Shown in pieces: positions 1 to 7,517 of a stretch of DNA of 7,517 nt (positions are counted from its first letter, which is position 1; each line of letters opens with the position of its first letter). The DNA lies in the IMG/VR virus record IMGVR_UViG_2706794686_000005; one strand, 5' to 3'. This stretch comes from a virus (Duplodnaviria > Heunggongvirae > Uroviricota > Caudoviricetes). A program made the position numbers and the translations under genes. The notes under the pieces were generated by a model. The model searched no databases. It was not told where the DNA came from and worked only from the letters and a program-made list of their open reading frames with translations.

Positions 1-87
1 CCCCGGCAGCCTTCAGGGAAAAATATCATCAGATGGCTGCTTAAAAAAAGAACAAATGGTAGTGTCCGCTATTGCCAGTACACCTCA
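1..87. repeat. Left copy of an 87-bp perfect inverted repeat; its reverse complement is 7420..7506
   Basis: Manual reverse-complement of 7420..7506 matches 1..87 base for base; match breaks at 88 vs 7419. Window begins exactly at the repeat boundary. Confidence 0.9.
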
Positions 88-1829: not shown

Positions 1830-2888
1830 GTGCGGGTATTACTTCGACCTGTTCTGGTACCGGAACTCGGTCTGGTTATCGTTAAGCCAGGCCGTGAATC
1901 AATGTCAGCATTCCATAACGGCAGAATACTGGTGGAGCCGGAACCAAAAAGCATGCGTAATCTGCCGTCCGGGGTCGTTCCTGCCGCTCGCCAGCCGCTG
2001 GTGGAAGACAAAACATTGCTGCCGTTTTTCAGTAACGCACGGGTGATTCGTGCTGCTGGTGGTGCTGGTGCATTGTCTGACTGGCTGTTGCGCCATATTA
2101 AATCCTGCCAGTGGCCACACGGCGATTATCATCACAGCGAAACCGTCATTCACCGTTATGGTACCGGCGCAATGGTGTTGTGCTGGCACTGCGACAACCA
2201 GCTGCGTGACCAGACATCCGAATCACTCGAGCAACTTGCTCATCAAAACCTGTCAGCATGGATGATTGACGTCATCGGTCACGCAATAAGCGGTACGCAG
2301 GAGCGTGAATTATCTCTGGCTGAATTATCCTGGTGGGCGGTCCGCAATCAGGTGGCGGACGCGCTACCGGAAGCGGTATTACGTCGTTCGCTGGGGTTGC
2401 GTGCGGAAAAAATTCGCTCTGTGTACAGTGAAAGCGACATCATACCGGGAGAGCAGACAGCCACCAGCATACTGAAGCAGCGCACAAAAAATATTGCGTT
2501 ACTGCCTCACGTCCACCAGCAACAGAACCCACCACAGGAAAAGACGGTGGTCAGCATTGCCGTTGATCCGGAGTCACCGGCTCAGTATCTCCAGCGCCAG
2601 AAATCACAACGGGAAGAGATGCCTGTATACACGCGCTGGGTAAAAACGCAGAAATGCATGACGTGTGGCAATCAGGCAGATGATCCGCATCACATCATTG
2701 GTCATGGACTGGGAGGGATGGGAACAAAGGCTGATGATTTGTTTGTTATTCCGTTATGCCGTAAATGCCGTAACGAACTACATGCCGGAGTAAAAGATTT
2801 TGAAGAGAAACACGGCAGTCAGCTGTTGTTGCTGATTCGTTTTTTAATGCACGCGAGAAATTCGGGTGTTCTGAAGTGGAAAGCATAA
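1830..2888 (+). CDS. YdfU-like DUF968 family prophage protein, 352 aa, with C-terminal Cys/His cluster
   Basis: Long ORF; GGAGG at 1821..1825 before GTG 1830 (alternative start ATG 1902); C-terminal motif CMTCGNQADDPHH...CRKCRNELH resembles the DUF968 zinc-binding region; position immediately upstream of rusA and Q is typical. Confidence 0.75.
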   Translation: MRVLLRPVLVPELGLVIVKPGRESMSAFHNGRILVEPEPKSMRNLPSGVVPAARQPLVEDKTLLPFFSNARVIRAAGGAGALSDWLLRHIKSCQWPHGDYHHSETVIHRYGTGAMVLCWHCDNQLRDQTSESLEQLAHQNLSAWMIDVIGHAISGTQERELSLAELSWWAVRNQVADALPEAVLRRSLGLRAEKIRSVYSESDIIPGEQTATSILKQRTKNIALLPHVHQQQNPPQEKTVVSIAVDPESPAQYLQRQKSQREEMPVYTRWVKTQKCMTCGNQADDPHHIIGHGLGGMGTKADDLFVIPLCRKCRNELHAGVKDFEEKHGSQLLLLIRFLMHARNSGVLKWKA

Positions 2889-3269
2889 ATGACCGAGCGC
2901 ATAGAATTTGTTTTACCTTACCCGCCGACGGTGAACACTTACTGGCGTCGTCGTGGCAGCACATATTTTGTATCAAAAGCCGGGGAGCGTTATCGCCGGG
3001 CAGTGGCGCTTATTGTTCGCCAGCAGCGGCTGAAATTAAGCCTGTCCGGAAGGTTGGCAATAAAAATTATTGCAGAACCACCGGATAAGCGCCGCCGTGA
3101 CCTGGACAATATTCTGAAAGCGCCGCTGGATGCGCTGACGCATGCGGGGTTGCTAATGGACGATGAGCAGTTTGATGAAATCAATATCGTTCGTGCTCAG
3201 CCAGTATCTGGTGGACGTCTGGGGGTGAAGATTTATCCCATAATGCTTGAAGGGCAGGTCAAAAAATGA
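2889..3269 (+). CDS. rusA: Crossover junction endodeoxyribonuclease RusA (Holliday junction resolvase), copy 1, 126 aa
   Basis: Translation contains the RusA acidic core PDKRRRDLDN...DALT...DDEQ; start abuts the ydfU-like stop; stop overlaps next ATG (ATGA). Confidence 0.9.
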   Translation: MTERIEFVLPYPPTVNTYWRRRGSTYFVSKAGERYRRAVALIVRQQRLKLSLSGRLAIKIIAEPPDKRRRDLDNILKAPLDALTHAGLLMDDEQFDEINIVRAQPVSGGRLGVKIYPIMLEGQVKK

Positions 3270-3471
3270 AACTGGAAGATTTACCGAAATACTACTCCCC
3301 AAAATCCCCCGGCCTGACTGATGCATCGGCCTCAACGTCGAAAGATGCGCTGAGTATCACTGATGTGATGGCCGCGCAGGGCATGACACAGAATCGGGCT
3401 GAGATGGGGGTTTCTGCGTTCCTTGGGAAAATGGGCATTAGTATGAATGACAGAGAGCGGGCAACAGAATT
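3266..3471 (+). CDS. Lambda-Q-family antiterminator, N-terminal 69 codons only; 3' part lost in N-run 3472..3721 and probably truncated or chimeric
   Basis: MKLEDLPKYYSPKSPGLTDASASTSKDALSITDVMAAQGM... aligns with the lambda Q N-terminus (MRLESVAKFHSPKSPMMSD...SGTDVMAAMGM). In-frame sequence after the gap (WLSGDSGGQSTDIFCLWTRKVHGCFPLP*) does not resemble a Q C-terminus, and the total would be 180 aa at most. Confidence 0.5.
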
Positions 3472-3721
3472 NNNNNNNNNNNNNNNNNNNNNNNNNNNNN
3501 NNNNNNNNNNNNNNNNNNNNNNNNNNNNNNNNNNNNNNNNNNNNNNNNNNNNNNNNNNNNNNNNNNNNNNNNNNNNNNNNNNNNNNNNNNNNNNNNNNNN
3601 NNNNNNNNNNNNNNNNNNNNNNNNNNNNNNNNNNNNNNNNNNNNNNNNNNNNNNNNNNNNNNNNNNNNNNNNNNNNNNNNNNNNNNNNNNNNNNNNNNNN
3701 NNNNNNNNNNNNNNNNNNNNN
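3472..3721. other. N-run, 250 nt of unresolved or masked sequence
   Basis: Run of n in the sequence. Confidence 1.
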
Positions 3722-3887
3722 TGGTTGTCTGGAGATTCAGGGGGCCAGTCTACGGACATTTTCTGCCTGTGGACCAGGAAAGTGCACGGGTGCTTTCCAC
3801 TCCCATGAAGCCCGGCAATCCGCGCAGATACAGTAATAAACGAACTGACAGCAGTAAGATGGAGCGTTTCTTTTGAACAACCAGACA

Positions 3888-4130
3888 ATGACTTTTACCC
3901 CTGAACAATTGCGTAAACACGCGCAGGAAATGCTGCGTCATGCTGAACAACTCGAAAAAACGGGCATAACAAAAGACGCTATCCGTAAAGATATGGTACC
4001 CGCGCTTCGGGAACTGATGCAGGCGAAGCATCGCGCACAGAAAGCAGTAGATGAGCTGGTGGACTGTGTGGCAGAGCTGGAAACCAGAGTCGGAAAGTTT
4101 GAAAAACTGGTGCAGGAGGTGCTGCGCTGA
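3888..4130 (+). CDS. Hypothetical protein, 80 aa from ATG 3888 (85 aa from TTG 3873); predicted helical/coiled-coil
   Basis: ORF in track; stop TGA 4128..4130 overlaps the rusA copy 2 start (TGATG); N-terminus MTFTPEQLRKHAQE resembles the 114-aa [18 protein letters not shown]; weak RBS. Confidence 0.45.
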   Translation: MTFTPEQLRKHAQEMLRHAEQLEKTGITKDAIRKDMVPALRELMQAKHRAQKAVDELVDCVAELETRVGKFEKLVQEVLR

Positions 4131-4504
4131 TGCGCCATGAGTTTATTTTACCTTATCCGCCGACGGTGAATACTTACTGGCGACGTCGTGACAACACATA
4201 TTTTGTATCAAAAGCCGGTGAGCGTTATCGCCGGGATGTGGCGCTTATTGTCCGTCAGCAGCGACTGAAATTAAGCCTGTCCGGAAGACTGGCGATAAAG
4301 ATTATTGCAGAGCCACCGGATAAGCGCCGTCGTGACCTGGACAATATCCTGAAAGCACCACTGGATGCACTGACACATGCGGGAGTGTTAATGGACGATG
4401 AGCAGTTTGATGAAATCAATATCGTTCGTGGTCAGCCAGTATCTGGTGGACGTCTGGGGGTGAAGATTTACCCCATAATGCATGAAGAGCAGGTCAAAAA
4501 ATGA
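4130..4504 (+). CDS. rusA: Crossover junction endodeoxyribonuclease RusA, copy 2, 124 aa; divergent paralogue of copy 1
   Basis: Same RusA core motifs; SD AGGAGG at 4113..4118; differs from copy 1 at the N-terminus and at 7 internal residues, with many synonymous nucleotide differences. Confidence 0.9.
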   Translation: MRHEFILPYPPTVNTYWRRRDNTYFVSKAGERYRRDVALIVRQQRLKLSLSGRLAIKIIAEPPDKRRRDLDNILKAPLDALTHAGVLMDDEQFDEINIVRGQPVSGGRLGVKIYPIMHEEQVKK

Positions 4505-5175
4505 AACTGGAAGATTTACNNNNNNNNNNNNNNNNNNNNNNNNNNNNNNNNNNNNNNNNNNNNNNNNNNNNNNNNNNNNNNNNNNNNNNNNNNNNNNNNN
4601 NNNNNNNNNNNNNNNNNNNNNNNNNNNNNNNNNNNNNNNNNNNNNNNNNNNNNNNNNNNNNNNNNNNNNGCCCTTGTTGCTATGGGGAAAAATTTATTGA
4701 AAGCGTAGTTTTTACAAACAAGGTCCAGTATCCGGATGGTAAGCCGCCGGTATGGGCAAAGTGTACGAAAGGTGTGTATCCGTCTTACTGGGAAGAATGG
4801 AAAAAAGTCAGGGAGGTGGTAAAAGTTGCCTGTCCGGAGTGTGGCGGAAAGGGTGAGGTTTCCACCGCCTGTAAGGATTGCCGTGGGCGTGGTGTCGCCA
4901 TTCATCGTGAAGAGTCGGTAAAACGTGGTATGCCTGTTATCAGAGACTGCCAGCGTTGTGGTGGTCGTGGCTATGAAAGACTACCATCAACGGAGGCATT
5001 TAATGCTATATGCGAGGTGACAAACCAGATAACACGCGCGTCATGGGAAAAAACAGTTAAGAAATTCTATGATGCGCTGGTGACTCGGTTTGATATTGAA
5101 GAAGCATGGGCTGAGCGGCAGTTAAAAAAGGTAACTAGGTTGATTTTTCCGGAATCTGTGGTAAATTCGTCATAA
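4501..5175 (+). CDS. Q: Lambda-Q-family late-gene antiterminator, 224 aa; codons 7..56 masked by N-run
   Basis: ATGA coupling to rusA; first 19 nt identical to the Q fragment at 3266; zinc-finger-like CPECGGKG...CKDCRGRG...CQRCGGRGY and C-terminal TVKKFYDALV parallel lambda Q (CRDCHGTG...CGRCKGVGY...TVKPLYDALV). Confidence 0.8.
   Translation: MKLEDLXXXXXXXXXXXXXXXXXXXXXXXXXXXXXXXXXXXXXXXXXXXXXXXXXXXPCCYGEKFIESVVFTNKVQYPDGKPPVWAKCTKGVYPSYWEEWKKVREVVKVACPECGGKGEVSTACKDCRGRGVAIHREESVKRGMPVIRDCQRCGGRGYERLPSTEAFNAICEVTNQITRASWEKTVKKFYDALVTRFDIEEAWAERQLKKVTRLIFPESVVNSS
4520..4669. other. N-run, 150 nt, inside Q
   Basis: Run of n in the sequence. Confidence 1.
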
Positions 5176-5178
5176 CTA

Positions 5179-5215
5179 TGGGCGTTTTATGCCTGACGTT
5201 AGAAGAGTTTCTACA
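5179..5215. repeat. 37-bp direct repeat, copy 1 (tgggcgttttatgcctgacgttagaagagtttctaca), ending at N-run
   Basis: Identical to 5483..5519; true extent unknown because the inner side of each copy abuts N. Confidence 0.85.
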
Positions 5216-5482
5216 NNNNNNNNNNNNNNNNNNNNNNNNNNNNNNNNNNNNNNNNNNNNNNNNNNNNNNNNNNNNNNNNNNNNNNNNNNNNNNNNNNNNN
5301 NNNNNNNNNNNNNNNNNNNNNNNNNNNNNNNNNNNNNNNNNNNNNNNNNNNNNNNNNNNNNNNNNNNNNNNNNNNNNNNNNNNNNNNNNNNNNNNNNNNN
5401 NNNNNNNNNNNNNNNNNNNNNNNNNNNNNNNNNNNNNNNNNNNNNNNNNNNNNNNNNNNNNNNNNNNNNNNNNNNNNNNNNN
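5216..5482. other. N-run, 267 nt, in the expected pR'/qut position downstream of Q
   Basis: Run of n in the sequence. Confidence 1.
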
Positions 5483-5519
5483 TGGGCGTTTTATGCCTGA
5501 CGTTAGAAGAGTTTCTACA
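5483..5519. repeat. 37-bp direct repeat, copy 2
   Basis: Identical to 5179..5215. Confidence 0.85.
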
Positions 5520-5520
5520 A

Positions 5521-5542
5521 CCCGCCGCCGAGCGGGTTTTTT
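5521..5542 (+). terminator. Rho-independent terminator, tR'-like, downstream of Q
   Basis: Stem CCCGC (5521..5525), loop CGCCGA, GCGGG (5532..5536), then TTTTTT; the CGGG-TTTTTTAT ending resembles the lambda tR' 3' end as I recall it. Confidence 0.65.
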
Positions 5543-5662
5543 ATGACTGAAATCGCGTCAGTACAGTAAACGCGCTGGTGGCGGTGAATACCTGTCTTTC
5601 AGCTTGCTGGCTTTTTCGACAAGAGTTATTGGTGTGTCACGTTAACCGGAAAAGGAAAAGAC

Positions 5663-6370
5663 ATGCTAAAACAGCAGGATATGACAGAAACCGCCAGAGT
5701 GGTGTTTAATGAATTAAGCGTTNNNNNNNNNNNNNNNNNNNNNNNNNNNNNNNNNNNNNNNNNNNNNNNNNNNNNNNNNNNNNNNNNNNNNNNNNNNNNN
5801 NNNNNNNNNNNNNNNNNNNNNNNNNNNNNNNNNNNNNNNNNNNNNNNNNNNNNNNNNNNNNNNNNNNNNNNNNNNNNNNNNNNNNNNNNNNNNNNNNNNN
5901 NNNNNNNNNNNNNNNNNNNNNNNNNNNNNNNNNNNNNNNNNNNNNNNNNNNNNNNNNNNNNNNNNNNNNNNNNNNNNNNNNNNNNNNNNNNNNNNNNNNN
6001 NNNNNNNNNNNNNNNNNNGATTGAGTGTTTGTTATACGGTCTAATGGTTTTTTCAGCATTAAATATTTATCATTCATATGGTGTGGGTAGAGTGAATATT
6101 GATGAGGCGTCGGGGTGTTTCATCCTTAGGCAGCGTATTGATATAGTCAATGCAGCACGAGCAAAGGCCTTCAGCCGTTTGACAGTTTTGTTCTGTACTC
6201 CTGATCGTCTTTCGGGAAGAGACGTTATTATTCTGAATAGTGATGCTATACAGAGGGTTTGCGATGAGTTCATGGTTGCTAATTCAGAATTATTTGCTCT
6301 TGTTCAGGAGTACAACAGAATAGCCAGGACCTGTGGTATGGATGAACTTCGGATTACTCATCTGGGGTAG
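5663..6370 (+). CDS. Hypothetical cargo protein; 235 aa only if N-run 5723..6018 preserves frame and hides no stop; otherwise two genes
   Basis: Good RBS (aaaaggaaaag) before ATG 5663; 117 open codons after the gap; AT-rich codon usage with rare AGG/AGA/ATA/CTA; competing minus-strand ORF 5706..6077 lacks an RBS. No family recognised. Confidence 0.4.
   Translation: MLKQQDMTETARVVFNELSVXXXXXXXXXXXXXXXXXXXXXXXXXXXXXXXXXXXXXXXXXXXXXXXXXXXXXXXXXXXXXXXXXXXXXXXXXXXXXXXXXXXXXXXXXXXXXXXXXXXIECLLYGLMVFSALNIYHSYGVGRVNIDEASGCFILRQRIDIVNAARAKAFSRLTVLFCTPDRLSGRDVIILNSDAIQRVCDEFMVANSELFALVQEYNRIARTCGMDELRITHLG
5723..6018. other. N-run, 296 nt, inside the cargo ORF
   Basis: Run of n in the sequence. Confidence 1.
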
Positions 6371-6696
6371 ATACATATCTGGATTATCACCTGTTACGGT
6401 AAAAAGTGATTGCTTACTGTTTTTGTGAATGGCATTGCAGCAGCCGGATAATGTCAGTGCTGGCTGACGGTGTGCTGGTGGCGGGTGTGGTGGTTGTTGC
6501 TTTCCCGTTGCTGAAAAAGAAAACGCCAGACTGTTAGCCGGGTATCAGTTAGCGGGAGAAATTTTTAAATACTTCACAATTCAGGCGGTTGACTGTTGTC
6601 TGGTTTGCGGGGAGTTTGTTAAAAGAAACTGGCATGGTGAATCCCCCTGTGCGGAGGGGCTGTTTATATTGATTTTGTCAGATGTGAGTAAACTCC

Positions 6697-7032
6697 TTAT
6701 GGACTTTGTTGTTTTAGTCCATAAGGACATATTTGCAGAGTGCAACGGTTATTAAAGCATTCATTCAATACGTTATCTGTATTTGTAGGGCATTCCTGGC
6801 TATTTTTGATTGAATTCCAGAATGTTTTATTGAATGGTACTACGTTGTAAATGGTTACAGGTAGCACTTTGTTATTGAGCATGATGCCTGTGTGAGTCAG
6901 TGTAAATATACTTTCAGGAGGTAAGAAAGCATCCGATTGATACCAGATTATTAATTTTATTTTACTCCATATGACTGAAAAAGATATTCCGCATGATGGC
7001 TGGATAACTGTATCAATCACAATCCACTTCAT
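6697..7032 (-). CDS. Hypothetical protein, 111 aa, Cys/Trp-containing, in AT-rich DNA
   Basis: Minus-strand ORF with no overlapping plus-strand gene; RBS AAGGA about 6 nt before the ATG (plus-strand 7030..7032 is cat); candidate promoter TTTACA-N17-TACTTT upstream on the minus strand. No family recognised. Confidence 0.45.
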
Positions 7033-7292: not shown

Positions 7293-7466
7293 ATGGCATT
7301 TAAACACTATGATGTTGTCAGGGCGGCGCCGCCGTCAGATCTTGCGGAAAAGCTGACACATAAACTGAAAGAGGGCTGGCAGCCGTTTGGTAGTCCGGTG
7401 GCCATAACCCCTTATACCCTGAGGTGTACTGGCAATAGCGGACACTACCATTTGTTCTTTTTTTAA
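7293..7466 (+). CDS. Small hypothetical phage protein, 57 aa (MAFKHYDVVRAAPPSDLAEKLTHKLKEGWQPFGSPVAI...); last 15 codons encoded by the right inverted-repeat copy
   Basis: ORF in track from ATG 7278; ATG 7293 preferred because of ggaaag upstream; the GWQP.G motif is reminiscent of small phage proteins in the DUF1737 class, but that is uncertain memory. Confidence 0.4.
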   Translation: MAFKHYDVVRAAPPSDLAEKLTHKLKEGWQPFGSPVAITPYTLRCTGNSGHYHLFFF

Positions 7467-7506
7467 GCAGCCATCTGATGATATTTTTCCCTGAAGGCTG
7501 CCGGGG
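7420..7506. repeat. Right copy of the 87-bp perfect inverted repeat (reverse complement of 1..87)
   Basis: Verified by manual reverse-complement in 10-nt blocks; followed by 11 nt (agatattcccc) to the window end. Confidence 0.9.
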
Positions 7507-7517
7507 AGATATTCCCC

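Follow-up and report, generated by a model that had tools for sequence, protein, structure and literature searches.

A 37-bp direct repeat at a lambdoid late leader is probably a scaffolding artefact from two paralogous prophage remnants

In phage lambda, the late control region is arranged in the order Q, pR', qut, leader and tR', and the leader is the 6S RNA of about 194 nt. The sequence AACGAT at +1 to +6 of lambda pR', which resembles a -10 element, and the GGG that follows it lead to a sigma70-dependent pause at +16, where Q loads (PMC4005639). We analysed a stretch of 7,517 nt from the IMG/VR record IMGVR_UViG_2706794686_000005 (Caudoviricetes), referred to as the window. A first-pass annotation, made from the letters alone, had described a 37-bp direct repeat around an N-run of this window and had expected pR' and qut to lie in the masked DNA.

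The module of the window was compared with that of lambda, using also two prophage remnants, loci A and B, that are introduced below. The antiterminator Q gene lies directly 5' of the leader and has its stop codon at 5173-5175 in the window. The full-length Q proteins match the profile PF03589 'Antitermination protein Q' with E values of 7e-55 (locus B) and 1.6e-53 (locus A). A putative pR' on the + strand (5140-5167) consists of TTGATT (5140-5145), a 16-nt spacer and a TG-extended TAAATT (5162-5167; TG-TAAATT at 5159-5167). Its score of 8/12 was below the threshold of the consensus scan (9/12), so that it was not called; its -10 element and the surroundings align with lambda pR' (NC_001416). 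Between 5160 and 5182, GGTAAATT-CGTCAT-AAC(T/G)ATGGG can be aligned with the lambda sequence GGTAAATT-TGACTC-AACGATGGG without any change of spacing, and both AACTATGGG of locus B (window 5174-5182) and AACGATGGG of locus A are found at the same distance from the -10 element as AACGATGGG in lambda. AACTAT and GGG on the + strand (5174-5182) are the counterparts of the lambda pause element AACGAT at +1 to +6 and of the GGG discriminator-like sequence. From this alignment, we infer that transcription would start at about 5174, inside the Q stop codon. By homology, the 37-mer would then cover the late leader from about +6 to about +42, i.e. the presumed sigma70 pause and Q-loading region directly upstream of tR'. 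A terminator scan placed a tR'-like intrinsic terminator at 5519-5544 (+), consisting of a hairpin (5519-5538) and a T-run, and RNA folding predicted a 7-bp GC-rich hairpin before the U-run; beyond this hairpin, folding of the leader RNA yielded nothing significant (z = -1.6). The position of the repeat between Q and a tR'-like terminator was thus confirmed. The expectation that pR' and qut are hidden by the Ns did not hold, as the -10 element (5162-5167) and the pause element (5174-5179) are both visible 5' of copy 1 in the lambda alignment.

The likeness to lambda comprises the PF03589 Q protein, the spacing between the -10 and the pause element (a 6-nt spacer) and the intrinsic terminator downstream. 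There are also clear differences. Lambda Q has 207 aa (a CDS of 624 nt), whereas the Q proteins analysed here have 273-284 aa with a DnaJ-like CXXC region. The spacer between -35 and -10, which is the site of the Q-binding element in lambda, has an unrelated sequence, and the leader, counted up to the last U of the U-run, has only about 67 nt and is much shorter than that of lambda. Furthermore, unlike in lambda, the putative promoter of locus B is located inside the 3' end of Q, which encodes 284 aa, spans both the -35 and the -10 element, and has a stop codon that overlaps the presumed transcription start. Locus A carries an 8-bp insertion near the 3' end of Q (GGTAACTAGGTAACAAGG, versus GGTAACTAGG in locus B; about 10240-10262 of the locus A record L048, 7180-7195 of the locus B record L058, and 5125-5140 of the window). 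Because of this insertion, Q of locus A has 273 aa and ends 45 bp before the 37-mer.

A sequence search agreed with the described repeat: TGGGCGTTTTATGCCTGACGTTAGAAGAGTTTCTACA is present exactly twice on the + strand of the window, at 5179-5215 (copy 1) and 5483-5519 (copy 2). Further copies with up to three mismatches were not found in the window, and the chance expectation for such a pair was 0.00 (200 shuffles). The N-run between the copies (5216-5482) comprises 267 N; copy 1 ends at the base before the first N and copy 2 begins at the base after the last. The window contains three additional N-runs, at 3472-3721 (250 N), 4520-4669 (150 N) and 5723-6018 (296 N). An overlap of the flanks was found only at the gap 5216-5482, where it amounts to 37 bp, and was 0 at the other three gaps. 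At this gap, the repeat abuts the Ns on both sides, which is a characteristic of scaffold-join artefacts.

A real change of the late leader could also explain the repeat, either a tandem duplication of 304 bp comprising the end of Q, pR' and the leader, or an insert of about 267 bp between +42 and tR' that is flanked by a 37-bp duplication. The visible sequence is compatible with both, the interior being N, and related proposals had been made before, namely a tandem duplication of the pR'-qut region and a target- or att-like duplication around an inserted element. Neither proposal found support in the relatives. Two phages, mEp460_ev081 and Stx2_EH1910, contain a single copy, as shown by an overlap of exactly the 37-mer between their matches to the left and to the right flank. 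In the best 60 of the complete E. coli genomes listed, a query of 824 bp (window 4900-5723) mapped to 521-529 bp, so that the extra 304 bases have no counterpart there. All 43 exact occurrences in IMG/VR have the 3' end of Q on the left and, with or without a terminator SNP, ACCCGCCGCCGAGCGGGTTTTTT on the right, and all six metagenome stretches contain one 37-mer, preceded by Q and followed by the terminator. The representative genomes of GTDB contain no exact match to the 37-mer, and a search for the contig of the window itself in the IMG/VR and metagenome sets did not detect it. Among the finished loci, the IMG/VR occurrences and the metagenome occurrences, two 37-mers on one molecule were never found in gap-free sequence; wherever finished or gap-free sequence was inspected, each Q module had one 37-mer. 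Likewise, none of the relatives from E. coli, IMG/VR or metagenomes contains an insert that separates the 37-mer from the terminator, and all of them have empty sites. The only record with two copies is the IMG/VR record L039, in which the two halves are joined by scaffold N.

General considerations point in the same direction. A short-read assembler would collapse a tandem duplicate of 304 bp rather than stretch it with Ns, and usual target-site duplications are far shorter than 37 bp. In addition, as shown below, the flanks of the gap belong to different loci, and the other N-runs of the window are not faithful in length. A real duplication or insertion is therefore regarded as extremely unlikely. 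The same holds for a reading with about 267 bp of extra DNA between +42 and tR' in the form of a small insertion or of a duplicated Q-loading and pause region with two tandem qut-like leaders, which we consider scarcely credible; if it were real, the extra leader DNA could alter the set-up of the Q-modified polymerase.

The origin of the flanks was clarified with finished chromosomes. Locus A was reached via the intact DUF968 protein of the window (1830-2888) and locus B via the second of its RusA genes (4130-4504). Locus A is a prophage remnant that adjoins ompW in finished chromosomes of about 4.8 Mb, with the order IS3-family element, hok, DUF968, RusA, Q (273 aa), a 65-aa ORF, an N6/N4 methyltransferase and an inverted IS. 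The order of locus B is IS21, an 85-aa ORF, RusA, Q (284 aa), DUF3927, an IraM/PmrD-like gene, DUF1737 and an IS. Both loci are present in the same chromosomes (CP104423.1 and CBDDMI010000001.1), and in CP104423.1 their 37-mers are 670,053 bp apart, as computed from the locus ranges. Each finished locus, A as well as B, contains the 37-mer once. Locus B is also present in HE616528.1 and CP019689, which are named in a paper as Shigella sonnei 53G and 75/02, and thus the draft that gave rise to the window is probably derived from S. sonnei or a close relative.

Two variants of the sequence downstream of tR' were observed (L046 9119-9194; L045 7462-9158; L047 9202-10899). The ATGACTG-type variant contains the 65-aa ORF, a DNA methyltransferase and tRNA-Ile/Arg/Arg. 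The ATTGCGG-type variant runs nearly straight into tRNA-Ile according to the annotation of FDAARGOS_944, and looks like a deletion derivative. The sequence 3' of tR' in locus B includes TTTTTTATTGCGGAATTAATTACGG.

The five N-free segments of the window were compared by BLAST with locus A (L048) and locus B (L058). All five are in + orientation, and they alternate between the two loci. The first contig (1-3471) is derived from locus A, the remnant near ompW, is 99.97% identical to L048 6172-9642, and carries hok, DUF968 (1830-2888), RusA (2889-3269) and the 5' end of the locus A Q gene (from 3266). It is followed by the gap of 250 N (3472-3721), which conceals a switch from A to B. The second contig (3722-4519) is 100% identical to L058 5593-6390 of locus B and contains the 85-aa ORF, RusA (4130-4504) and the start of the locus B Q gene (4501). 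After the gap of 150 N (4520-4669), the third contig (4670-5215) also represents locus B, being 100% identical to L058 6721-7266, and covers the 3' part of Q together with the pR'-like promoter, reaching about +42 of the leader, so that copy 1 is the locus B copy of the 37-mer; its identity to locus A is only 97.4%, with six mismatches and the 8-bp indel. The gap of 267 N (5216-5482) conceals a switch from B to A. The fourth contig (5483-5722) is 100% identical to L048 10303-10542 of locus A, matches locus B over only its first 62 bp, and contains copy 2, tR', A-specific downstream sequence and the start of the 65-aa ORF (5663). The last gap, of 296 N (5723-6018), again conceals a switch from A to B, and the fifth contig (6019-7517) is derived from locus B (6019-6660 is 100% identical to L058 7694-8335, and 6644-7517 is 99.8% identical to L058 8440-9313). 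It contains the DUF3927 region, iraM (6697-7032, - strand), a fragment of DUF1737 and an IS600 end (7420-7517).

The beginning of the window (1-87, - strand) is a terminal sequence of IS600, an IS3-family element, and is a 100% inverted copy of 7420-7506. This terminal sequence matches the end of the annotated IS600 in FDAARGOS_944 as well as the IS ends that flank loci A and B. Judged by these matches, the window of 7.5 kb represents an entire scaffold, which breaks off in an IS600 copy at each end, as expected of an IS-rich draft of the Shigella type.

Two further features of the window were inspected. The two RusA genes (2889-3269 and 4130-4504) are 90% identical over 300 nt and resemble a local duplication; this interpretation was rejected, as they belong to the separate remnants A and B. 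Compared with finished locus B, 121 bp (L058 8336-8456) are missing from the window at 6644-6660. A probe for the long form was contained in 51 fetched loci, and the junction of the window was found in 0 of 74. This junction is situated between the near-identical 17-nt palindromic motifs CCCCTGTGCGGAGGGGC and CCCCTCTCCGGAGGGGC, and it may have arisen by true deletion between the short repeats or by a further collapse during assembly.

The segment assignments also revealed the nature of the N-runs. The N-runs, which account for 12.8% of the window, contain each change of source locus (first A to B, then B to A, then A to B) as well as the one discrepancy of length within a locus. If masks had been placed independently, the probability of such a coincidence would be about 0.002 with the three switches alone, and about 0.0003 when the length discrepancy is included as a fourth event. 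The distances also disagreed with the finished sequences: from 4519 to 4670, the 150 N of the window stand against 330 bp in locus B; from 5215 to 6019, the window has 803 bp and locus B 427 bp; and from 3471 to 5483, the window has 2011 bp and locus A 660 bp. Not one N-run has the length of a true distance. The alternative would be that the Ns are length-preserving masks over a contiguous mosaic, and that the strain had undergone multiple real recombination events between A and B. Masking by N-runs is documented for some stretches in one collection, and gap-free contigs with A on the left and B on the right (L007) as well as B on the left and A on the right (L025) exist. However, masks would have to cover by chance not only the three switches but also an in-frame deletion of 180 bp in Q, their lengths match no relative, and the contig end at position 9642 of locus A recurs in an independent scaffold (L015). 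We consider masking very unlikely. Since the gap flanks are not adjacent in finished chromosomes (loci A and B are about 670 kb apart) and the gap sizes disagree with finished sequence, we take the N-runs to be scaffold joins. On this view, the period of 304 bp is the sum of 37 and an arbitrary estimate of the gap, and nothing biological would lie between the copies.

The overlap of 37 bp can be traced to a block that is common to both loci. Loci A and B share an exact block of 63 bp, composed of one base, the 37-mer and 25 bases of the terminator, to TTTTTTAT. On the left, it is limited by a T/G SNP 2 bp before the 37-mer, and on the right by the divergence into ATTGCGG (locus B) versus ATGACTG (locus A). 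The locus B contig (4670-5215) enters this block for 38 bp from the left, while the locus A contig (5483-5722) lacks only the first base of the block and covers the other 62 bp from the right, and hence the two contig ends share 37 bp. These ends suggest a k of 39 for locus B (38 bp) and of 63 for locus A (62 bp), so that one assembler k-mer size was rejected as their common origin; this misfit with a single de Bruijn k counts against the reading proposed below. The other contig ends of the window do not coincide with boundaries of exact A/B repeats.

The most serious alternative retains an artefact, but at one locus. If the source strain were a recombinant with a B-type Q 3' end joined to A-type downstream sequence, the two contigs would simply overlap, and the true gap would be -37 bp. 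The exact abutment of the repeat on both sides of the gap fits such an overlap, as do two complete E. coli records that match the collapsed join of the window with a single mismatch. Gap-free parts of L023 and L025 indeed join B on the left to A on the right via a single 37-mer; in L023, a gap-free stretch contains a Q that is 99.6% identical to 4670-5215, followed by sequence that is 100% identical to 5483-5722. This also counts against our own reading, as the contigs of the window may be physically contiguous in some strain. Both records may, however, be chimeric paths through exact repeats of 40 to 343 bp. An exact copy of the collapsed join, moreover, was found in none of 5,426 complete E. 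coli genomes, where the closest match had one mismatch. A further argument comes from the alleles. In 7 of 7 IMG/VR cases with a visible continuation, the T allele that lies 2 bp upstream of the 37-mer in copy 1 ('AACTA') was followed by the ATTGCGG variant, and the same pairing was found in the finished locus B records that were compared, with an exact match in E. coli FDAARGOS_944. The allele evidence thus favours two physical copies of the 37-mer over one overlapped locus, and the remaining scaffold plainly interleaves two loci. An overlap at a single locus is therefore judged to be rather unlikely.

Sister records from IMG/VR, which belong to the same group of drafts and had looked gap-free, showed similar arrangements. 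In L015, L018, L023, L039 and L042, pieces of loci A and B are interleaved and separated by single Ns, which resemble the way in which SSPACE treats negative gaps. None of 13 gaps in the sister scaffolds had overlapping flanks, and therefore the 37-bp overlap is not a routine signature of the pipeline. The 37-mers of L039, which are 1,593 bp apart, were considered as a real tandem of Q-pR'-tR' modules. This was rejected, because one half is a B contig and the other an A contig, with a single N at 2769 as the join. The L039 arrangement was collinear with none of the complete E. coli genomes, and the best match consisted of three pieces with 95% identity, extending over 3.2 kb for a query of 2.4 kb. 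The N-free contigs L007 and L025 are reciprocal arrangements, and they represent either a real exchange between the remnants via an exact repeat of 343 bp in Q, or chimeric assembly paths.

Taken together, the results are best explained by a scaffolding artefact that involves two paralogous lambdoid prophage remnants, without any biological duplication, and we estimate the probability of this reading to be about 0.8. The window would be a scaffold of a short-read draft that is bounded by IS600 copies. The scaffolder would have strung contigs of the remnants A and B, both of which contain a Q-pR'-leader-tR' module, into one line. The end of the B contig and the start of the A contig, which reach into the common 63-bp block, would have been placed around a gap whose size was a guess. 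In the finished genomes examined, copy 1 leads into tR' and then into the sequence of locus B, and about 670 kb away, copy 2 follows the 3' end of the locus A Q gene; the same presumably applies to the source strain. In the usual textbook case of mis-scaffolding, an overlap at a single locus has simply been left unmerged. The window shares with mis-scaffolding at a paralogous repeat the alternating loci, the switches inside gaps, the wrong gap sizes, the IS ends and the common repeat, and differs from the textbook case in that the contig ends most likely stem from two genomic copies. The earlier suggestion of an artefact from unmerged overlapping contig ends was thus upheld with regard to the artefact, whereas the ends probably belong to two loci and not to one. 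The observation named earlier as evidence of an assembly artefact was a resolved sequence with one 37-mer and no gap; a single 37-mer was found in each locus, but the gap would not just close, as its flanks are derived from loci B and A.

Three ORFs of the window are artefacts of the joins. The ORF 3266-3808, which runs through an N-run, fuses the 5' end of the locus A Q gene to locus B sequence. The ORF 4501-5175 represents the locus B Q gene, cut from 284 to 224 aa because a stretch of 330 bp is shown as 150 N, by chance in frame. The ORF 5663-6370, also through an N-run, fuses the 65-aa ORF of locus A to locus B DNA.

The gene order of the window is not real but that of a chimera of two prophage remnants, and the value of the finding lies mainly in quality control; prophage architectures inferred from L015, L023, L039, L018 and L042 are likewise unreliable. 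The biology of Q, pR', the leader and tR' is already well understood from lambda, and the module is of an ordinary, known kind that is present once per prophage and is common to many E. coli and Shigella prophages.
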